A stretch of DNA of 64,000 bases from Candidatus Parcubacteria bacterium (GTDB lineage: Bacteria; Patescibacteriota; Minisyncoccia; Minisyncoccales; JAGLUP01). Shown one piece after another: positions 5,312 through 38,709 of this stretch (position 1 is its first letter; the number at the start of each line of letters is the position of its first letter). Under the pieces are notes generated by a model. It did no database searches, was not told where the DNA came from, and worked only from the letters and a program-made list of their open reading frames with translations. The translations under genes and the position numbers were made by a program. Location: NCBI GenBank assembly GCA_023134715.1, contig JAGLUP010000004.1, positions 1,301-65,300 on the forward strand, given 5' to 3'.

Positions 5312-6898
5312 CTAAAAAGAAATTTCAAGGGCAGTGGCTACACTAGCTAAAAATTGTTTGATTGTTTCAAAAAATGTTTGCGGTTCCTCAAAAAAAGGAG
5401 CTGCTTCTTCTGACTGTGGTTCTTGCATAGGCGCAAATTCTTTTTGAGGCATCATCATACCTTGTTCTGGAGGTGTCATTTCTATATATCCTTCTGGAGG
5501 TGTCATTTCTATATATCCTTCTGGAGGTGTCATTTCTATATATCCTTCTGGAGGCGTCATCATTTGTTTCATTTTCTCTGCGTCTTCCGAACTCATCATG
5601 CCTTCTTTGACAGAAAAATTAAAACATTCTTCCATATGTTCAGGATTATCGCAATACGCTTTGCATTCTTCCGGCGTCTGACAACCGCCCGGACCGCCTG
5701 GACCCTCTGGTCCAATTTTTTTAACCATTTCAACTTCTTCCGGCTTTACTAATCCCATTTTCTGACCAAATTCCATACATTCCTGCATATGTTCCGGGTC
5801 TTGACAATAAGCATCACATTCTTCCGGCGTCTGACAACCGCCCGGACCGCCCGGACCGCCAGGCCCAAATTGTTCTCCTATTTTTTTTGTCTCTTCTGCT
5901 TCTTCAGAACTCATAAACCCGGCTTTAACAGCAAATTCCATACATTCCTGCATATTATCAGGATTATTACAATATGCTTCGCATTCCTCTTTTCCCTGAC
6001 ATCCGCCAGGACCGCCAAAAATTCCTGCTTTCGCCATCTTCCTTACTTGTTCTGCTTCTTCAGAGCTCATAAACCCGGCCGCCTCGCCAAAATTAACACA
6101 CTCTTCCATATGCTCTGGCTGGGAACAATAGATGTCGCATTCTTGTTTGTTTCCACACATCGGCGGTTTAATGCCTTTTTCCAATGCCTGAAGCATCATT
6201 CTTGCCTCTTTTTCTTCCTCTGCCGGCATAAGTCCATACTTAAGACCAAACTCTATACACTCTTTCATATGGTCTGGGTTATTACAATAAGCATCGCATT
6301 CCTCTTTTCCCTGACATCCGCCTGGTCCTTTCCCTCCGGTCTTACGAATCATTCCTGCTTCTTCAGAGCTCATAAACCCGGCCGCCTCGCCAAAAGTAAT
6401 ACATTCTTCAAGATGTTCTATCTGAGAGCAATAAATATCACACTCTTGTTTTCCGCGGCAAGGAGGTGGTTTTACTCCTTTTTTAATCGCTATTAGAGCT
6501 TGTTCTGCTTGGGCAAGTTCTTCCGGGGGAATCAAGTTATGCTCTTTGCCAAAAATAATACACTCTTCCATATGCTCCGGCTCATCACAATATATCTCGC
6601 ACTCTTCCTGACCTTGACAGCCGCCTGGGCCAGCCATTGTCTCGAGCATCTCGAGCATTTTCCTGTCTTTTTCTATTTCTTCCTGAGAAAGTAAATTATG
6701 GGCTTCAGCAAAATCAAGACAGGCCTTAGTATTTTCTTCTAAATCGCAATATGCCTCACATTCCTCCATACTGACGCAATTTCCTAATTCAGGAATAGGA
6801 AAATTAACATCAGATAGCAAATCCTCCTCAGCAAACGCAAAACCGCAAAAACCTAAAAAAATAAAAGTAAAAATAAAAACAAAATAAACCTTTTTCAT
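5312..6898 (-). CDS. Secreted cysteine-rich repeat protein (8 x four-Cys module; C-terminal TPPEGYIEM x4)
   Basis: A signal peptide (MKKVYFVFIFTFIFLGFCGFAFA) is followed by eight repeats of about 45-55 aa, of the form (GPGG)C-x4-5-C-x3-C-x8-9-C, e.g. GPGGCQGKEECDAYCNNPDHMKECIEFG. A proline/glutamate-rich tail follows. Confidence 0.85.
   Translation of the reverse strand: MKKVYFVFIFTFIFLGFCGFAFAEEDLLSDVNFPIPELGNCVSMEECEAYCDLEENTKACLDFAEAHNLLSQEEIEKDRKMLEMLETMAGPGGCQGQEECEIYCDEPEHMEECIIFGKEHNLIPPEELAQAEQALIAIKKGVKPPPCRGKQECDIYCSQIEHLEECITFGEAAGFMSSEEAGMIRKTGGKGPGGCQGKEECDAYCNNPDHMKECIEFGLKYGLMPAEEEKEARMMLQALEKGIKPPMCGNKQECDIYCSQPEHMEECVNFGEAAGFMSSEEAEQVRKMAKAGIFGGPGGCQGKEECEAYCNNPDNMQECMEFAVKAGFMSSEEAEETKKIGEQFGPGGPGGPGGCQTPEECDAYCQDPEHMQECMEFGQKMGLVKPEEVEMVKKIGPEGPGGPGGCQTPEECKAYCDNPEHMEECFNFSVKEGMMSSEDAEKMKQMMTPPEGYIEMTPPEGYIEMTPPEGYIEMTPPEQGMMMPQKEFAPMQEPQSEEAAPFFEEPQTFFETIKQFLASVATALEISF
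5467..5560. repeat. 27-bp tandem repeat x3.5 (coding)
   Basis: CTGGAGGTGTCATTTCTATATATCCTT is repeated. It encodes the (M)TPPEGYIE repeats of the Cys-rich protein. Confidence 0.9.
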
Positions 6899-6907
6899 AT
6901 AGCTTTT

Positions 6908-7207
6908 TTATTTAAACGGATTCTTGTATCCTCCTTCAAACGGATTGGTCTTAACTCCTTCCAGCGGATTAGCAGAAGGAAGGTTCTCTACTGGATTGAC
7001 TTCAGCTCCAGCCGTGGTTTTGGAAATCATCTCTTGTTGTTCCGCCTCCACTGCTTTTTTGCCATCATCATATCCTTTGGTATAACCGCTATTATGACCA
7101 GTTTTATAGCCCTCCGTCTGACCGAAATAATAAGCGCCTGCTCCCGTAACTAAAGCAACTGTCATAGCAATGATAATTATTTTTAAATTTTCCATATCTT
7201 TTTTCAT
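6908..7207 (-). CDS. Small membrane-anchored hypothetical protein
   Basis: This 99-aa protein has an N-terminal hydrophobic helix (IIIIAMTVALVTGAGAYYF) and is tightly packed between two secreted-protein genes. Confidence 0.55.
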   Translation of the reverse strand: MKKDMENLKIIIIAMTVALVTGAGAYYFGQTEGYKTGHNSGYTKGYDDGKKAVEAEQQEMISKTTAGAEVNPVENLPSANPLEGVKTNPFEGGYKNPFK

Positions 7208-7261
7208 TATTCAATTATACAATAGAAATTAATTCTTTTCTACGCTCCTGGGTGTGCATAA

Positions 7262-9262
7262 CTATAAATCTAATTCCTGAACTTTTTCCCAATCAATTTC
7301 ATTCAGTACGGTGATTTTATTCTCGCCGATAATATATAAATAATCATTAATGTAAATCGCTCTTCTGGCAGAAATCTGGCTTATTGCTTTTTTCAACTGT
7401 AGTTTGTCATTTTCATAGGAAAAAATATAACCTCCTTTACTGCCGGGCAGGAAAAATATATTATGCTTTTTATCCAGTAAAAAAGCGTGATGGGTATTTA
7501 AAATATCAGACCAGTATTCATTTAAAAGATATTTATCGCGCTCAATAGGTTTTTCCGCAAACTCCACATCAAATAAAGAAATCTTTATTTTTGAGCCCTC
7601 CTTGCCTATGCCCAAAATTTTGTCTTTAGACAGAGGATGCAAATAAGCGGAATAGCCAGGAATTTTTAATTCCCCTTTTAGTTCTGGATTTTTTGGGTCA
7701 GACAAATCTAAAACATAGAAAGGGTCAATCTGCCTATATGTAACAACATATCCTTTGTCTTGAATAAATCTAACCGAGTAAATTCTTTCAGTTAAACCCA
7801 TATCTTTCACAGCTCCCTGAATTTTCAAATTTTTATCCAAAACATAAACATCATTAGCGCTCTCTCCCCTGCCCATGAACCAACTGTCTCCAATTGTAAT
7901 CGCAACTCTTAAATTGCCTTTGTATTCATCTAATGCAAACTGATTTAAAAGACGGCCAGGCACTTTTCCTGCGGCCTTAACCTTAAATCCTTCCAGTCCT
8001 ATTTTTATAATACCTGTTTTTTCCAACTCTCGCTTATGTTTTTTATAATAATCATTCATTCTGTTTTCCATTTCATTCTCTATTCTTAAACGCTCATCTC
8101 TGTCTAAAGAAGCCATATATTTTTCCAAAATTATTTGAAATTCAATAAGTTTTGCCTGCTGGCTAATATCATATTCCTCTAACTTATCAAGCTTGGCAAT
8201 AACATAACTCGGAAAAATATCTCGCGCTTCTTCTTTCAAAAAATCAGCAAAAAATTTAATCATACTTTCATAATAAGAATAAGTAGCGTATATTGAATTC
8301 TCTGACATATAAACAATTGAAGAGCCGGAAGACCCGACAAAAGAAATCTTTTTTTCTACTTTTCCGGATTTAGGGTTTAAAATTGTTGCGGTAAAAACAA
8401 CATCTATCGGTACTGGAGAAACTGGATGATAAATATCTACACATTTTATCTCAAGCTCTGCTCCGTTAACTGTCAAAGGTCTTATCGGACAAGGATGATA
8501 AATATTTATCCTGTCCTTGGTGACTAAATATATTTTATTTTTATAAAGCCGCGCGCTGACTAAATGACTATTATCCTCCAGCTCTATATCCCATTTCTTT
8601 TCAGGTGATTTTGAATCAGAAACATCATAACCATAAATATCCTGCCCAGAAAAAATAATCAAATTATTTCCATCTAAAAGTAAATTTCCTGTTTGAGCAA
8701 TGCTGGAATCTATATCTAAGTCAGACGGAGGAAACGCCTTTATTATTTTTGTTTCTCCCTTGACTGAAGGATGCGGCAGCGCTATCATTTCCCTCATTCC
8801 CCATCCATAATAACTTTTTGCTTGAGAAAAATAAATTTCTTTGCCGTCTGTTTTAACAATATCTGGCTCGTCAATTCCCGCAACCTGAACATTGGTATCG
8901 GAAACTCTTCCTATCACTGCCTCACCCGCTCCTTTCCTCAGCTCTCCGGTTTGCTCCAACATCGGAACCGACATATCACTGACAGAACGGACCGCTCCCA
9001 AGCTAAAACCATAACTTGAATCAAGCGCTCCTTCTACTAAATAATCTTTAAATTCCTGCTCTGAAGAAAATGTTTTAATGTCCTCTACCTTTTCAGAGGA
9101 AAGAGGAGCTTGAGATAATGGAATTTGAGGAAAATGAAGCGAAAGATTTTGAGCTAAATCTTCACAAACTAAAAAAATGCCGCAAACGGCAACGAAAAAA
9201 GCAGCTACAGCAACAGCTAATTTCCCGTCAACTTCTTTTTTTAAAAAATTTGTCATATTCAT
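7262..9262 (-). CDS. Secreted beta-propeller domain protein (COG4880-like)
   Basis: It has an N-terminal anchor (LAVAVAAFFVAVCGIFLV). The motif TNVQVAGIDEPDIVKTDGKEIYF and the later YLHPL...GIGKEG...SLFDV are as I remember them for the secreted beta-propeller family. Confidence 0.65.
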   Translation of the reverse strand: MNMTNFLKKEVDGKLAVAVAAFFVAVCGIFLVCEDLAQNLSLHFPQIPLSQAPLSSEKVEDIKTFSSEQEFKDYLVEGALDSSYGFSLGAVRSVSDMSVPMLEQTGELRKGAGEAVIGRVSDTNVQVAGIDEPDIVKTDGKEIYFSQAKSYYGWGMREMIALPHPSVKGETKIIKAFPPSDLDIDSSIAQTGNLLLDGNNLIIFSGQDIYGYDVSDSKSPEKKWDIELEDNSHLVSARLYKNKIYLVTKDRINIYHPCPIRPLTVNGAELEIKCVDIYHPVSPVPIDVVFTATILNPKSGKVEKKISFVGSSGSSIVYMSENSIYATYSYYESMIKFFADFLKEEARDIFPSYVIAKLDKLEEYDISQQAKLIEFQIILEKYMASLDRDERLRIENEMENRMNDYYKKHKRELEKTGIIKIGLEGFKVKAAGKVPGRLLNQFALDEYKGNLRVAITIGDSWFMGRGESANDVYVLDKNLKIQGAVKDMGLTERIYSVRFIQDKGYVVTYRQIDPFYVLDLSDPKNPELKGELKIPGYSAYLHPLSKDKILGIGKEGSKIKISLFDVEFAEKPIERDKYLLNEYWSDILNTHHAFLLDKKHNIFFLPGSKGGYIFSYENDKLQLKKAISQISARRAIYINDYLYIIGENKITVLNEIDWEKVQELDL

Positions 9263-32149: not shown

Positions 32150-32710
32150 TTATAATTCATCAACCCATACATAAGTACTGCCTGCTGGAACAAATCCGTA
32201 TTTTGTAATCTTACAACCTATCCTTTCGCTTTCTCTAATTAGAATATCATCAAACGATTCTACTTCTATTAACTCAATGTCTTTTGCGTTATTTGTTATA
32301 TATTTTAATTTATTGTCTTTGTCTCTGAAAACAGTTGCCGCATGCTGTCCTTTCATCTCGCCGCTTAACTTGAGACACATTATTTTTACATCATACCCAT
32401 GTTGTTCTAATACATATGAACCAAATGTGGCAAGATTTTTACAATCCCCTTCTTTTATATAAAAAAATTCCTCTGGCGGAAAAGAAATATGTCCTTCGCA
32501 ATCTCTCCATTTAAAATTTTTCTTAATATAATCCAATAACTTTTTTGGCGTGTCTAATTCGCTAACAACTTTTTCAAAATTCGGTTTCTGAATTTTAGAT
32601 TCTGCTTTTTCATCCAGTTCCGTTGACCACAGCGTTGCTGAAATCAAAACCGCCGCTAAAATCAAAACCGCAACACCAATAACACTAATTATTTTTACTC
32701 TATTCTTCAT
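32150..32710 (-). CDS. Membrane-anchored transglutaminase-like (Cys-His) protein
   Basis: An N-terminal TM helix, then EGDCKNLATFGSYVLEQHGY...GQHAATVF, which is compatible with a transglutaminase-type Cys/His core. Confidence 0.45.
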   Translation of the reverse strand: MKNRVKIISVIGVAVLILAAVLISATLWSTELDEKAESKIQKPNFEKVVSELDTPKKLLDYIKKNFKWRDCEGHISFPPEEFFYIKEGDCKNLATFGSYVLEQHGYDVKIMCLKLSGEMKGQHAATVFRDKDNKLKYITNNAKDIELIEVESFDDILIRESERIGCKITKYGFVPAGSTYVWVDEL

Positions 32711-32716
32711 TATTTT

Positions 32717-32725
32717 ATTCTACCA
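32717..32725 (-). promoter_or_regulatory. Extended -10 TGGTAGAAT, 6 nt from the ATG (leaderless type)
   Basis: Minus strand: TTTTTTGGTAGAAT-AAAATA-ATG. It is preceded by the terminator hairpin at 32750-32774. Confidence 0.5.
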
Positions 32726-32909
32726 AAAAATATCGCTCCTATCAAAAACAAAACAGAGCTTCCGCTCTGTTTTTAATCATTTGCCTCTCTGGCGATTTTC
32801 CTTAGCTCGGCTCCCCTTGCGGGACGCGTTCAGAACCGTTGTCCTAAAAAATAAAAACTACCAATTTTGGTAGTTAAAAACGGATCACCCTGAAATGAAA
32901 CATTTGATA

Positions 32910-33281
32910 TTATGCTGCCGCTTTTTTCAATAAAGAAGTTATATCAACTTTTTCTGGGCTAAACTCTGATTCTTTAGTAGAATAAGCCCTGTTTGCAGCT
33001 ACGATACGGAGCATTTCCGAAACATCATTCTCGGCATTTATAAAAGATATCTCTTTCCTATTTGAAACTTTACTTTCAAATCTCGCTTTCAATAGAAGTA
33101 AAGAATGAGCCGCTGAGCGAGAAACAAATTTAACATCGGTAAAATCTAAAATTACTGACATGGTATCAGTTTTTTTTATCATTTGCTCTAAAACATCAGC
33201 TACATCACGAGAACTTATGATTGTTGCCAATGATTTAGCTATGCTAATTTCAAATAAATTTTGACTTTTATTAATTTTCAT
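32910..33281 (-). CDS. STAS-like (DUF4325-type) protein
   Basis: This 123-aa protein carries SSRDVADVLEQMIKK...VILDFTDVKFVSRSAAHSLL, which fits the STAS-like pattern (lDF.gV..is.sfa.el). Confidence 0.55.
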   Translation of the reverse strand: MKINKSQNLFEISIAKSLATIISSRDVADVLEQMIKKTDTMSVILDFTDVKFVSRSAAHSLLLLKARFESKVSNRKEISFINAENDVSEMLRIVAANRAYSTKESEFSPEKVDITSLLKKAAA

Positions 33282-33336
33282 ATTAGTAGAATCGTTATCT
33301 ATATCAACTATACCATAAAATAGAATAATTAGTATA

Positions 33337-34191
33337 TCACTCTACATACTTAAGATAATCAATATCGCCAGTTGGTTTTGGTATTCTATAAGCAACGATA
33401 GCTCCCTGCCAATGAAAATCGTGCAAAAACACTAATTTCTCGCTCCGATTAGTGGCAACTAATGCACAAGAACCAGAAATTAAAATAAATCCACCTCCTT
33501 TTAGCGCTTTACATACAACATCCTTTGAAGTTCTCAAACCGTAGCCTCGTTCTTTATCTTTCTTTACCGAATTACCCATCATCGCTTCGGTAATGGCTTG
33601 TTCATCTGTTAAATTTAGCCCTTTCTCTTCTTTGTAAGCTGTAGCAAAACCTCTGCCACAGTCAATAATACAAATATCTAAATAGTCTTTTTGGGGATAA
33701 AACTGTGCAAAAATATAGCCTGAATCCCTCTTACTGTGTTCAAAAACATTGGTTATTAATTCTGACATAGGATACCAAAGAGCACTCCGAGCCCCAGATA
33801 CATTACCAAGAACTTTATAAACTTTTTCTTGAAATAGTGCTTCTAATTTTTCTCTCCCAACTTTCTCTTCTTTATTTAATACGCTTATTGGTATAAAAGT
33901 TCTATGCCTCTGTACCTGTTGCTGAAAAGAAGAGATAGAATTTATACCTTTCGGGAAGCTTACTTTTTCTAAATAAGACCTTATACTACAACTGTCTATT
34001 TTAAATCCGCTTTTCGTTTCGTTTATATAGGCACTTATGGGCAAGATTAAAAGTGGACAAACCCAATTTAATAACGATAAATCAAATTCTAATTTCTCGC
34101 CAAAAGTAACGCCCTTAAATATATTATAAAAAGACCCTAATTGAGCAACAAGAGAATCATTTTTTGGTTTTGGGACTATAATACTTTTCAT
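33337..34191 (-). CDS. GHKL (HATPase_c) ATP-binding protein, SpoIIAB/RsbW-like kinase fold
   Basis: N box ELITNVFEHS, G1 IIDCGRGF, G2 ERGYGL. I do not recognise the N-terminal ~130 aa. Confidence 0.7.
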   Translation of the reverse strand: MKSIIVPKPKNDSLVAQLGSFYNIFKGVTFGEKLEFDLSLLNWVCPLLILPISAYINETKSGFKIDSCSIRSYLEKVSFPKGINSISSFQQQVQRHRTFIPISVLNKEEKVGREKLEALFQEKVYKVLGNVSGARSALWYPMSELITNVFEHSKRDSGYIFAQFYPQKDYLDICIIDCGRGFATAYKEEKGLNLTDEQAITEAMMGNSVKKDKERGYGLRTSKDVVCKALKGGGFILISGSCALVATNRSEKLVFLHDFHWQGAIVAYRIPKPTGDIDYLKYVE

Positions 34192-35538: not shown

Positions 35539-36042
35539 TTATTTATAAACAGCAATTATTTGTCTTACGATTAACTCATTCGGCTTTATATATTCCCCTA
35601 TGAAATCAAACCACACTTTCATAAAATCATCTCTTTCCAGCTTTCTAATTTTTCCTATTTCAGGATCTTGAAGATGGATAAATTTATCATCAAGCCCAGC
35701 GACAACCGAGTAGTGTCCGTCAGCGACATCAGAATCAGAATAATCTTTTCTGCCCCTGGTAAACCAACCTACAATAACAGGAACTTTCCTATCAAGCCAT
35801 TTTTCAATGTCTTTAAAGCTGCTATTATTTTTTATTTTTACCTTGAAACCTAAGCATTTTGCCGCCTTTTTAATCCCCTTATCATCTATTCCTAAATCTT
35901 TATTCCATCCAGTCATTTCGGCTAATTCTTTTTCTGTTTTGTCTATCCCGTAATATTTCAGAACTATTTTCAAAGACGCAGGTCCGCACATTCCCGAATT
36001 AAGAGTTTCTTGAAATGGCTTAATATTTAATATTATTTTCAT
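35539..36042 (-). CDS. Peptidase C39-like (papain-fold) domain protein
   Basis: QETLNSGMCGPASLKIVLKYYG...DGHYSVVAGLDD...LQDP. The start is set at MKIILNIK, which lies 6 nt after a TGGTATAAT box. Confidence 0.6.
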   Translation of the reverse strand: MKIILNIKPFQETLNSGMCGPASLKIVLKYYGIDKTEKELAEMTGWNKDLGIDDKGIKKAAKCLGFKVKIKNNSSFKDIEKWLDRKVPVIVGWFTRGRKDYSDSDVADGHYSVVAGLDDKFIHLQDPEIGKIRKLERDDFMKVWFDFIGEYIKPNELIVRQIIAVYK

Positions 36043-36048
36043 ATTTTT

Positions 36049-36057
36049 ATTATACCA
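36049..36057 (-). promoter_or_regulatory. Extended -10 TGGTATAAT, 6 nt from the ATG (leaderless type)
   Basis: Minus strand: hairpin AAAATCGCCTTTTTGGCGATTTT, then TTGGTATAAT-AAAAAT-ATG. Confidence 0.5.
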
Positions 36058-36209
36058 AAAAATCGCCAAAAAGGCGATTTTCCTACAAGCTCCGGATAAG
36101 AAACCGCATCAAACTTAATGCTAGAGGCTATAAAAAATTAATTAAAAAACAAAAAATAATCTAGTAAACTAAATTTCTAGAATTCAATAAAGATGCCCCT
36201 TATATTCTT

Positions 36210-36272
36210 TTACATATCGCTACCACAAGAATTTTCTATAAATTCTTCGAAAGTAACATTTTCTGTCTCCAT
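36210..36272 (-). CDS. Candidate 20-aa peptide METENVTFEEFIENSCGSDM
   Basis: It is not in the ORF track because it is too short. It starts 14 nt after the radical SAM stop, on the same strand and before the unit's terminator. An ORF this short could be chance. Confidence 0.25.
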   Translation of the reverse strand: METENVTFEEFIENSCGSDM

Positions 36273-36286
36273 GGTTTAAAGTTGTT

Positions 36287-37306
36287 TTATTTTTTATTCG
36301 ACTTTTTATTATTATAAAAACATAATGGGTCAGATGTCAAGGGGTCGCCAGTTTCTATATATGCTGCGGCACGACAACCCCCACAAGACAAAATTCTGTC
36401 ACATCTTCCACATTTTCCCTTTAATTCTCTATTTCTTAACTGTTTTAAAATTTTTGTATTATTCCAAATTTTTTTTAAAGAAATTTTCTTAATATTCCCC
36501 AATAATAATTTTAATTTTGTGCATATATAAACATTTCCATTAAAATCGACTGACAAAGAGTTAACTCCAGCCAAACAACCACTGTAAGTGTCTATTCTTT
36601 TATAAGATGAAGCTGGGAAAGGATCATTAAAAGAAATCTTTTGCTGTATTTTTAATTTATTAACATTGTTTACTAATTTTCTATAATTAAATTGTGATAA
36701 TATTAAGCTCTGGTCAGATTCCTTTCTTACCGGTATATAGCGCTTAATTGTCAGAAAAACTCCAATATCTTTTGCTATTTTTGCCACAGCAAAAAGTTCA
36801 TTTAAATTATGCGCATGCGCGGTAAATGCTATCGAAGTATTGAAATGTTTTTTAATCTTCTTGGTTGCTTCTAATGATTTATTAAAGGCGCCATTTGACC
36901 CTCTGATTTCATCGTGTTTTTTGGCGGATCCAGCATCTAAACTAATATTAACTTTATCGATTAAACCTTTAAATTTTTCGATAAAAACGCTGTCAATTAA
37001 TGTTCCATTTGTGGCAAGAAAAACTAATAATTTCTTTTTTTTAGCAAAATTTACTAGTTCTAAAAGATCTGTACGCACAAGAGGCTCTCCTCCCGTAAAT
37101 AAAATAGCTCTTAAGCCCAAAGGAATAGCATCTTCTATTATATCTTTTCCCTCTTGAGTAGACATTTCATCTAAAATGCTTTCTTCTGAAAAAACTTTAT
37201 TATAGCAATGTCTGCATTTCAAATTACACCTGCAAGTAATATTCCAAGTCAGATAATAGAGAGGGAAAATCATTCGTTTATTTTTTGATATATTTTTGAT
37301 TGCCAA
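36287..37306 (-). CDS. Radical SAM enzyme with C-terminal SPASM domain
   Basis: CNLKCRHCY (CxxxCxxC), GGEPL, and a C-terminal CGRCDRILSCGGCRAAAYIETGDPLTSDPLC. Confidence 0.85.
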   Translation of the reverse strand: MAIKNISKNKRMIFPLYYLTWNITCRCNLKCRHCYNKVFSEESILDEMSTQEGKDIIEDAIPLGLRAILFTGGEPLVRTDLLELVNFAKKKKLLVFLATNGTLIDSVFIEKFKGLIDKVNISLDAGSAKKHDEIRGSNGAFNKSLEATKKIKKHFNTSIAFTAHAHNLNELFAVAKIAKDIGVFLTIKRYIPVRKESDQSLILSQFNYRKLVNNVNKLKIQQKISFNDPFPASSYKRIDTYSGCLAGVNSLSVDFNGNVYICTKLKLLLGNIKKISLKKIWNNTKILKQLRNRELKGKCGRCDRILSCGGCRAAAYIETGDPLTSDPLCFYNNKKSNKK

Positions 37307-38582
37307 GATATGGCCTCAATACTTCGGGAATTAAAATAGAACCATCTTTTTGCTGATTGCATTCTAGAAGCGCTATTAAAATTCGAGGAGAGGCAATTAC
37401 TGTATTATTTAAAGTATGAACATAGCGCTTATTTTTTTCTTTCGTTCTGTATCTAATATTTAATCTTCTAGATTGCCATGTAGTAAGGTTTGAATCAGAA
37501 TGGGTTTCGCCAAAAGCATTTCTTGATGGCATCCAAGTCTCAATGTCATACATTTTATGTTTTCCAATACCCATATCGCCAGTACATATTTGTATAACTC
37601 TATGAGGCAATTTTAAATCTTTTAAAATTTCTTGAGATATTTGCTTCATCTCCTCTAGCCACTTATTCGATTCTTCTATATCATCCCTGCAAATAACAAC
37701 TTGCTCAACTTTCATAAATTCGTGAAGACGATATAACCCATGAGTATCTTTCCCATAACTTCCCGCTTCGGATCTGTAACATTGAGATATTCCGCAAATT
37801 TTAATTGGCAAATCTTTTTCATCTAATGTTTCATCGGCATAATAACTAATTAATGATGGCTCTGCCGTACCCGCTAAAAACATGGGTTCTTTAGTAGCTT
37901 TTTTATTTTCAAGTCTACCAAAATTCGCGATTTGATAAACCTCTTCACGCGCTGTCGGAAAATGACCACTGCCAATTAAAGAAAATTCGCGAATAATCGT
38001 AGGAGGAACAAATAACTTAAATCCTTTTTGTTCCATTTTCTTTATTGAAAGCCACATTAAAGAGAAATGGAGTAAAGCAGCTTCATTTTTTAAAAAATAT
38101 CCTCTAAATCCTGATATTTTTACTCCTGCCTTAGTATCAATTAAATCTAATTCTTTGCCTAATTCTATATGATTTTTAATTAAAAAATCAAATTTTGGCA
38201 CCTCTCCCCATCTTTCTATTTCTTTATTAAATTTTTCACTTGCCCCAACTGGAGAATCTTCCGAAGGAATATTTGGGACTAGAAGCATAATAATTTCAAA
38301 TTCTTTATCTATTTCTTTAAATTCTTTTTCAATCTTGTCTATCTTTTTATTTAATTTTTGCATTTCTAGAATAATATCTTTTTTTTCTTCAAAATTTTTT
38401 GATTTTTTGATTTTTTGATTTGCTTTATTCTTTTGCGCTCTCATATCTTCAACTGTCCGAAGTAATTCTCGCCTTAATTCATCTATCTCTAATAATCTGT
38501 CAATATCAACTCTAGCTTGTTTTTTTTGACAAGCATCTTTTATAATATCAGGGTTGGTGCGAATGAAATTAATATCTATCAT
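37278..38582 (-). CDS. serS: Serine--tRNA ligase
   Basis: MIDINFIRTNPD..., class II motifs (YRSEAGSYGKDTHGLYRLHEF), and TVIASPRILIALLE. Confidence 0.95.
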   Translation of the reverse strand: MIDINFIRTNPDIIKDACQKKQARVDIDRLLEIDELRRELLRTVEDMRAQKNKANQKIKKSKNFEEKKDIILEMQKLNKKIDKIEKEFKEIDKEFEIIMLLVPNIPSEDSPVGASEKFNKEIERWGEVPKFDFLIKNHIELGKELDLIDTKAGVKISGFRGYFLKNEAALLHFSLMWLSIKKMEQKGFKLFVPPTIIREFSLIGSGHFPTAREEVYQIANFGRLENKKATKEPMFLAGTAEPSLISYYADETLDEKDLPIKICGISQCYRSEAGSYGKDTHGLYRLHEFMKVEQVVICRDDIEESNKWLEEMKQISQEILKDLKLPHRVIQICTGDMGIGKHKMYDIETWMPSRNAFGETHSDSNLTTWQSRRLNIRYRTKEKNKRYVHTLNNTVIASPRILIALLECNQQKDGSILIPEVLRPYLGNQKYIKK

Positions 38583-38637
38583 ACTTCTTTAATTAATTCA
38601 AAACTCTTAGAGCAATTAATTTATCTCTTTATTATAG

Positions 38638-38709
38638 CTCCGCGGGTAGGATTCGAACCTACAACCTAATGCTTAACAGGCATTCGCGCTACCATTGCGC
38701 CACCGCGGA
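38638..38709 (-). tRNA. tRNA-Asn (GTT)
   Basis: Cloverleaf: acceptor TCCGCGG/CCGCGGA, anticodon arm AATGC-CTGTTAA-GCATT, T arm GTAGG-TTCGAAT-CCTAC. Confidence 0.9.

Follow-up and report, generated by a model that had tools for sequence, protein, structure and literature searches.

Pairs of a radical S-adenosylmethionine (rSAM)/SPASM enzyme and a small peptide are of a well-known kind. In the freyrasin system (PapB/PapA), the enzyme PapB links Cys to an Asp or Glu residue on its C-terminal side, with CX1-5D motifs being fully converted, and a C-terminal carboxylate residue can likewise serve as the acceptor (PMC9413430; PMC12373016). In the albomycin cluster, the seryl-tRNA synthetase (SerRS) AbmK not only supplies substrate but also confers immunity, and aminoacyl-nucleotides are detoxified in the microcin C system by the GNAT MccE2 (PMC8323819). 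The gene pair considered here lies in a 64,000-nt stretch of AT-rich DNA (hereafter, the window; positions 1,301 to 65,300 of contig JAGLUP010000004.1) from a Parcubacteria genome of the candidate phyla radiation (CPR), and consists of a gene encoding an rSAM/SPASM enzyme and an unannotated 20-codon open reading frame (ORF) that follows it on the minus strand. Together, the enzyme and its peptide of 20 residues probably form a minimal cassette resembling those of peptides made by the ribosome and modified after translation (RiPPs), which makes up the last part of the serS operon and is closed by a terminator. The gene of the C39-like peptidase, situated beyond that terminator, is unrelated to the cassette. 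The family to which the pair belongs was found to be undescribed: Pfam and NCBIfam contained no family for either the enzyme clade or the peptide, and no description of the cassette was found in the literature searched. Its distinguishing traits are the absence of a RiPP recognition element (RRE), a composition of two genes only, an AhbD/NirJ-like enzyme, a peptide of 20 residues, and location within an aminoacyl-tRNA synthetase (aaRS) operon.

The locus shares with PapB/PapA and QhpD the SPASM class of the enzyme and a substrate in which Cys is followed by Asp on the C-terminal side, and the CX2D spacing present here is accepted by PapB. However, the score with the PapB model (NF047865) was 87 bits versus a cut-off of 340 bits, the enzyme has no N-terminal RRE, and a single motif at the extreme C-terminus of a 20-residue peptide of CPR bacteria is found instead of six repeats. 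The mycofactocin system is similar in its short, acidic, unannotated peptide (MftA, ending in CGVY), with Cys-Gly near the C-terminus and often an aromatic last residue, and in its maturase MftC, which is likewise a SPASM enzyme of ~330 aa lacking an RRE and was aligned with the enzyme of the window from end to end (residues 18-334 versus positions 13-336 of the 339-position profile). Membership in this system was nevertheless rejected on the score (135 versus 265 bits), on the peptide ending (Y, F, M or L after SD, not a conserved Tyr) and on the absence of mftB, mftD, mftE and mftF from the ten core loci, that is, the window together with the close orthologues for which DNA was retrievable (L150 and L152-L159); in addition, the peptide gene follows the enzyme gene and does not precede it. 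The highest curated scores were obtained with AhbD (heme b synthase, 211 bits) and NirJ2 (208 bits), which have the same seven-Cys SPASM layout and a similar size, the alignment with NirJ2 being full-length; however, these scores are less than 45% of the 500-bit cut-offs, and the neighbours here are serS, GNAT and varied genes, not tetrapyrrole genes. In two loci with true AhbD genes (L010 and L014 of Thermodesulfovibrio, next to hemE), the enzymes were at most 34% identical and the peptide was lacking. Identification of the enzyme as a true AhbD was therefore rejected on the score and the gene neighbourhood. The original prediction, which was made from the sequence of this region, treated clustering with heme enzymes as decisive against a peptide substrate; AhbD and NirJ2 are indeed the nearest families by profile score, but since their scores remain below 45% of the cut-off and the AhbD loci have no peptide, the peptide reading is not overturned. 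Albomycin and microcin C offer an analogy only: an aaRS gene or a RimL-type GNAT gene stands beside a biosynthetic gene for a very short peptide (PMC8323819), whereas no MccB- or AbmF-type nucleotidyl-transferase is present here. Meanwhile, anSME was only a distant relative in sequence and fold, and its substrate motif C/S-x-P/A-x-R was not found in the peptide.

The two genes of the cassette are located in the window as follows:

36287..37273 from ATG (TTG at 37306 in the ORF list), minus strand: radical SAM/SPASM enzyme of 328 aa, according to Pfam, NCBIfam, alignment, the AlphaFold2 model and Foldseek
36210..36272, minus strand: unannotated 20-codon ORF METENVTFEEFIENSCGSDM, predicted precursor peptide, according to conservation and the ratio of nonsynonymous to synonymous differences (pN/pS)

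The short ORF, which the original prediction had placed 14 nt past the rSAM stop, begins exactly there. By itself, an ORF of 20 aa is not significant, as 101 ORFs of at least 20 aa occur in the 9 kb around it, and the earlier caution that it could have arisen by chance was to this extent justified; its conservation, on the other hand, is significant. A homologous ORF on the same strand was detected 6-77 nt past the rSAM stop in all ten core loci, and the conservation beside rSAM orthologues that had been named as a test of the prediction was thus observed. The pairing supports the core idea of a maturase with an adjacent short Cys-containing peptide. The conserved tail of the peptides is [LIV]-[TS]-F-x-[EDK]-[FL]-x4-C-x-S-D-hydrophobic-stop, as exemplified by the peptides MENEILTFEEFLKTFCGSDY, MEEKEEKALTFDEFIATFCGSDY, MEKETLTFEELLRTICGSDF, MEEENLTFEEFLETFCGSDY and MEKEIITFDEFLETFCGSDM and by the peptide ends ...GITFREFMRVSCKSDY, ...PSFEELLKDSCMSDM, ...LSFEDFIKKSCKSDY and ...LTFNKFLKNSCMSDL. 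The core peptides all have the Cys and Asp residues and nearly all have the Ser residue, C-x-x-D being present in 11/11 peptides; the last residue varies (Y, F, M, L), and the N-terminal part is variable, ranging from acidic to lysine-rich. The peptide of the window has a recognition-like motif, TFEEF, and a C-x-S-D-x C-terminal core.

Over the last 15 codons, pairwise differences were 0.32 for the first, 0.23 for the second and 0.48 for the third codon position, and the pN/pS was 0.37 in frame versus 0.89 and 1.42 in the other two frames. The codons of the conserved Cys, Ser, Asp and Phe residues varied only synonymously (TGT/TGC, AGC/AGT, GAT/GAC and TTC/TTT, respectively). The 45 nt past the peptide stop could not be aligned between loci, and the next downstream genes were all different. 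Thus, the conservation across loci and the in-frame pN/pS show that the short ORF is a real, conserved, unannotated gene; a chance ORF was rejected on its presence in 10/10 loci and on purifying selection acting on the amino acids. A role as an upstream attenuator was also rejected, the ORF being located downstream of the genes and followed by a terminator. Versions of 20-23 residues were found nowhere among 15 billion predicted proteins; the search with the peptide alignment recovered 5 called peptide genes only, two called genes in addition to the ORFs of the ten core loci contained the same motif, and the called genes were exclusively the longer, lysine-rich versions, since most of the peptides are too short to be called. 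Searches of Pfam and NCBIfam with the peptides gave no meaningful match. Matches of a C.SD.* scan in the Thermodesulfovibrio loci were out-of-frame chance matches inside hemE and were rejected.

A sister clade was represented by rSAM genes 43-45% identical to the enzyme of the window, which occurred as tandem or fused doublets (L161, L003, L002, P0246). The accompanying peptides are in the same register as the core peptides and end in C-M-C-D-N. In L161, the peptide (...LTPKEFTEMACMCDN) is located downstream of the two rSAM genes, whereas in L003 (...LTPKEFVELSCMCDN) it is upstream of a fused 665-aa double rSAM and in L002 (...MSAEEFVELSCMCDN) upstream of the enzymes; consequently, the pairing of enzyme and peptide survives a change of gene order. 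One rSAM domain was associated with one Cys residue in the peptide and two rSAM domains with two Cys residues, and although the numbers are small, this is suggestive of the number of rSAM domains tracking the number of Cys residues.

Other peptides were noted at more distant rSAM loci of Patescibacteria, L055 (6008-6160) and L057 (1594-1734), which contain ...GFTLQEFVTSCSTCMGKEGLL... and share a related F-x-L-x-E-F-V-T-S-C start. In L161 (7772-7879), a third rSAM gene is followed by METVNEAIERMSREGFLSKARSLKCSICLGMDGDG, and in L013 (4831-4935, 6030-6299) a PqqD-like protein is encoded downstream of the rSAM gene and a Cys-Cys peptide upstream of it. There may thus be a wider set of unannotated rSAM peptides in CPR.

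The rSAM ORF occupies 36287-37306(-) in the ORF list. The length of 339 aa given in the original prediction corresponds to this ORF, starting from TTG at 37306, but ATG at 37273 is the more likely start, since the resulting 328 aa match the database protein P0001 and leave a 4-nt gap after the serS stop. The protein is identical to the NCBI entry 'radical SAM protein [Candidatus Parcubacteria bacterium]'. Pfam matches to Radical_SAM (PF04055, 1.3e-25) and SPASM (PF13186, 1.9e-10) were both above the gathering thresholds. The superfamily is defined by CxxxCxxC and a C-terminal seven-Cys motif, CX9-15GX4C ... CX2CX5CX2-3C ... C; here, CxxxCxxC is at residues 16-23 (C16, C20, C23), and the seven SPASM Cys residues are arranged as C233-x12-G-x4-C251 ... 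C288-x2-C291-x5-C297-x2-C300 ... C318. In an alignment of 28 relatives, the cluster Cys residues and the seven SPASM Cys residues were invariant or nearly so. The enzyme is therefore a member of the radical SAM/SPASM superfamily, and the CxxxCxxC cluster and full SPASM region described earlier were confirmed by Pfam and alignment. As for an RRE, no PqqD match was found in the enzyme or in the neighbouring genes of the orthologous loci (Pfam, AlphaFold2 model), and because the first SAM cluster Cys is already residue 16 of the 328, such a domain would not fit at the N-terminus.

The AlphaFold2 model of the enzyme had a pLDDT of 93, and its best Foldseek matches were PqqE, CteB, SuiB, SkfB and anSME; the same set was returned by the sequence search of PDB. 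The closest solved structures are thus those of SPASM enzymes acting on peptides or proteins. In NCBIfam, the top families for all 28 clade members were NirJ2, AhbD and TIGR04053 (best E = 3e-71), but no cut-off was reached by any of these members, the AhbD and NirJ2 scores in the clade being at most ~240 bits. Models of peptide maturases scored lower with the enzyme of the window, namely, WgkB 156, MftC 135, StsB 128, PqqE 118 and PapB 87 bits.

The order of features on the minus strand is tRNA-Asn, serS, the rSAM/SPASM gene, the 20-codon ORF, a hairpin terminator and the gene of the C39-like peptidase. The features other than the cassette genes themselves are as follows:

38637-38709, minus strand: tRNA-Asn, upstream of serS
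37278..38582, minus strand: serS, encoding seryl-tRNA synthetase and first in the operon (TIGR00414, 449 bits versus a cut-off of 302)
36299..36306, minus strand: conserved 8-mer AAAAGTCG (AAAGGTCG in orthologues), in the same relative place in 10/10 loci
36057..36083, minus strand: intrinsic-terminator-like hairpin of 11 bp, GGAAAAUCGCC-UUUUU-GGCGAUUUUUU, according to RNA folding
35539..36042 (ORF from 36069), minus strand: C39-like peptidase of 167 aa from the likely ATG at 36042, according to Pfam
Conserved 8-mer in other core loci: L150, 5969-5976; L153, 5978-5985; L154, 5028-5035; L155, 5211-5218; L156, 4385-4392; L157, 3263-3270; L158, 2762-2769; L159, 2433-2440

The tRNA-Asn gene was considered as a relevant feature and rejected. 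The hairpin followed by U residues is located between the peptide ORF and the peptidase and was present in both the minimum free energy and the centroid structures, so that the terminator claimed earlier after the short ORF was recovered by folding. The automated terminator scan of the region called none, though the folding gave a clear hairpin; similar hairpins were seen by eye 3' of the peptide ORF in L150, L152 and L156. The 8-mer AAAGGTCG was located 23-36 nt upstream of the peptide ATG in 10/10 loci, with the variants AAAAGTCG in the window and AAAGGCCG in L152. In some loci it falls within the coding tail of the rSAM gene, where its frame varies, and in others past the rSAM stop; its place is thus independent of the rSAM frame and stop, which indicates an element acting at the nucleotide level. 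Its role may be that of a promoter, of a site for processing or of an element used in translation.

It should be noted that a perfect sigma-70 consensus (TTGACA, 18 nt, TATAAT; 12/12) is present at 36311-36340 (-) of the window, within the last rSAM codons and ~38 nt upstream of the peptide ATG. This match could be the source of a separate strong transcript of the peptide. It is not kept in the orthologues, the best matches of which comprised 7 to 10 of 12 positions.

In the original prediction, the C39-like peptidase was counted as part of the locus, and this portion of it has to be abandoned. That the peptidase removes the leader from the rSAM-modified peptide, the three genes forming one locus, is hardly credible, even though the genes are adjacent on the same strand in the window and the protein has papain-type Cys and His residues and Pfam matches to Peptidase_C39 (1.7e-15) and C39_2 (8.3e-12). 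Between the peptide and the peptidase there are the terminator and a promoter, a TGGTATAAT extended -10 element a few bases before the peptidase ATG, which the prediction had also noted; the peptidase therefore represents a separate transcription unit. It gave no tblastn match in any of the 163 other fetched loci, those with orthologous rSAM genes included. It is one of a family of stand-alone proteins of ~167 aa; its homologues exceed 1,500 in number, and the 120 closest are 73-86% identical (where a source is named, it is Parcubacteria, Andersenbacteria, Moranbacteria or Pacebacteria). This family is ~100-fold more widespread than the rSAM clade (~20 sequences) as well as more conserved. In L162 (5001-5528), the peptidase occurs with no rSAM gene nearby, and typA is several kb off on the same side as in the window, this shared arrangement showing that the peptidase belongs to the local backbone. 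No GG, GA or GS leader site was found in the peptide, which has only ~5 residues before its conserved part, and of the attributes of C39 double-glycine leader peptidases and exporters, an ABC exporter fusion, a GG leader and co-occurrence with the maturase were all absent. The peptidase is an unrelated housekeeping-type CPR gene outside the cassette, and its strong conservation suggests a core role in CPR biology.

With respect to the function of the cassette, the peptide would be the substrate of the enzyme. As the enzyme has no RRE domain, it probably recognises the peptide directly, through the conserved [LIV]-[TS]-F-x-E-F stretch. The N-terminal [4Fe-4S] cluster would reductively cleave SAM, and the 5'-deoxyadenosyl radical, together with two SPASM auxiliary clusters, would modify the core Cys(-5)-x-Ser(-3)-Asp(-2)-x(-1). 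It would most likely yield an intramolecular thioether (-2 Da) in which the sulfur of Cys is joined to the carbon adjoining the carboxylate of Asp, as with PapB and QhpD; this Cys-to-Asp thioether is our best guess as to the chemistry, being proposed by likeness to these two enzymes.

Bacteria of the CPR (Patescibacteria) have tiny genomes, in which very little secondary metabolism is thought to be encoded, and a conserved two-gene cassette of an rSAM enzyme and a peptide that is invisible to automatic annotation is notable for this group. Without an RRE, a protease or a transporter, it would be about the smallest conceivable RiPP system, and a compact one in which to study leader-independent recognition by a SPASM enzyme related to heme-type enzymes.

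Several observations weigh against this explanation. The conserved Ser(-3) and its exchange for Cys in the sister clade are not explained by a simple Cys-Asp thioether, the best curated matches of the enzyme are the tetrapyrrole enzymes AhbD and NirJ2, and the score with the PapB model is far from its cut-off. No RRE, transporter, protease or immunity gene was found in the conserved unit. Furthermore, the conserved core of the peptide has no in-frame start codon in two of the core loci, L154 (5061-5139) and L155 (5255-5352), and no obvious Shine-Dalgarno sequence precedes the peptide. In L154 and L155, the sole ATG is in another frame, across A7-A8 runs encoding the lysine-rich leader; this frame break could be due to assembly error, pseudogenisation or poly-A slippage.

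It is conceivable, if unlikely, that the same enzyme-peptide pair carries out another chemistry, namely, conversion of Ser/Cys(-3) to formylglycine in the manner of anSME, or oxidative decarboxylation of the Asp side chain or the C-terminal carboxylate in the manner of AhbD or MftC, possibly followed by addition of Cys; the product may be cofactor-like and not a bacteriocin. The core clade has Ser at position -3 where the sister clade has Cys, anSME accepts either residue, and each of the ten Ser codons is AGY, a single step away from TGY; however, the anSME motif C/S-x-P/A-x-R is absent, the core being C-x-S-D-x-stop, and the invariant Cys(-5) would be idle in a pure formylglycine mechanism. 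Similarly, AhbD, NirJ2 and MftC are among the best-scoring curated families and anSME and PqqE among the best structural matches, but the C-terminal residue varies (Y, F, M, L, N), as opposed to the invariant Tyr of MftA, and no homologue of MftB, MftD, MftE or MftF is encoded at the loci. An intracellular product would also suit very small genomes without a transporter or immunity gene. Action of the rSAM enzyme on a non-peptide substrate (tetrapyrrole-like or another cofactor), with the short ORF being an accessory micro-protein or a regulatory element, was judged very unlikely. AhbD, NirJ2 and TIGR04053 are the top NCBIfam families for 28/28 clade members, but with scores far under the cut-offs (at most ~240 versus 500 bits), and no heme or tetrapyrrole gene was found at the loci, while true AhbD homologues adjoin hemE and lack the peptide. 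The lack of an RRE domain and the conserved nucleotide motif AAAGGTCG upstream of the ORF are compatible with such a role; nevertheless, purifying selection acts on the amino acids of the peptide and not on the DNA alone, and a changed gene order does not part the peptide from the enzymes.

The gene neighbourhood raises a further alternative, which concerns the aaRS genes. While the enzyme and the peptide of the original prediction stood and its peptidase did not, the linkage with serS and GNAT genes had been missed. In 7/10 core loci, namely, the window and L154-L159, serS is directly upstream of the rSAM gene, at distances between -13 (overlap) and +58 nt, and in L150, L152 and L153 its place is taken by a RimJ/RimL-type GNAT gene (Acetyltransf_3) that shares 4 bp with the rSAM start. 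The sister clade has cysS instead, directly upstream in L161 (2616-3980) and downstream of the cluster in L003 (~6756-8150); the Nanoarchaeota contig L008 also has it (185-1669), directly upstream of an rSAM gene. Both serS and cysS passed the housekeeping equivalog cut-offs, and neither was found in ~148 other rSAM loci (1.27 Mb in total). The residue at position -3 of the peptide, Ser in the core and Cys in the sister clade, is the only one of the core motif to differ systematically between the two classes of peptide, and it matches the adjacent synthetase (serS and cysS, respectively). The SerRS sequences linked to the cassette formed three groups, which were 30-38% identical to one another, whereas across the same loci the identity was 57-63% for the rSAM enzyme, 54-59% for a CTP-transferase-like gene, 45% for an alpha/beta hydrolase and 42% for a NUDIX gene; the region is thus partly syntenic, with an unusually divergent SerRS that is either evolving fast or has been replaced. 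Horizontal transfer of the cassette may account for the low SerRS identity.

These data bear on a functional coupling of the cassette to the adjacent aaRS (serS with C-x-S-D, cysS with C-M-C-D), with a RimL/MccE-type GNAT as the alternative partner, a coupling for which we see a small chance. Possibly, the rSAM enzyme converts the peptide of 20 residues to a compound directed at an aaRS. This could be an inhibitor of SerRS (in the sister clade, of CysRS) that resembles an aminoacyl-adenylate and arises by radical chemistry or addition of 5'-deoxyadenosyl, with the aaRS or GNAT conferring self-protection; another possibility is that the aaRS takes part in peptide maturation by supplying an activated amino acid. 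The presence of a serS or GNAT gene at all ten core loci, the absence of serS and cysS from ~148 other rSAM loci, the match between the Ser/Cys difference and the synthetase, the divergence of SerRS and the precedents of AbmK and MccE2 (PMC8323819) point in this direction. Meanwhile, only two or three independent associations are involved and the pattern was spotted post hoc; no adenylating enzyme and no transporter are encoded, serS and cysS are probably the sole copies in tiny genomes, and L002 and the GNAT loci have no aaRS gene in the available DNA. The adjacency may also be simple hitch-hiking, since riding a constitutive operon for expression would likewise explain it. If true, coupling to the aaRS would represent a novel way of making a RiPP, or of using one, in the ultra-small genomes of CPR and DPANN, and the match of serS/cysS adjacency with Ser/Cys in the peptide is a testable hint at a connection between a modified peptide and translation in host-dependent organisms.

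The clade of the enzyme is small. Close relatives numbered ~18 at 57-71% identity and were all metagenomic, with only two source names, labelled Parcubacteria and Nealsonbacteria; a further ~10 relatives were found at 39-53%, after which identity dropped to generic AhbD-like proteins at no more than 37%. In an exhaustive profile search of 1.84 billion representatives, the core clade corresponded to one 50%-identity cluster (P0004, 593 bits), followed by a few proteins of the sister clade scoring 320-400 bits and, from under 275 bits, by an unbroken run of lower scores. A profile scan of genome contigs with the rSAM alignment revealed only relatives at no more than 46% identity, and a pattern scan of metagenome contigs (generic CNL[KR]C..HC and ILFTGGE) gave, among the matches listed, only AhbD-like loci at no more than 35%. 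In P0125 (56 aa, on a 1,092-nt contig), the first ~35 residues of an rSAM orthologue are fused directly to a copy of the peptide (...CYNDSFKIMEKETLTFEEFLKTFCGSDF), which is either a deletion in the enzyme gene or an assembly artefact.

Three ORFs were noted on the minus strand of the window downstream of the peptidase. The ORF at 33337-34191 had a weak, sub-threshold match to HATPase_c_2 (RsbW-like), and that at 32910-33281 had a weak, sub-threshold match to STAS (anti-sigma-antagonist-like). The third, at 32150-32710, encodes 186 aa without a family match and by eye appears to be a membrane-anchored transglutaminase-type Cys protease. Taken together, the three ORFs (32150-34191) look like a partner-switching module.

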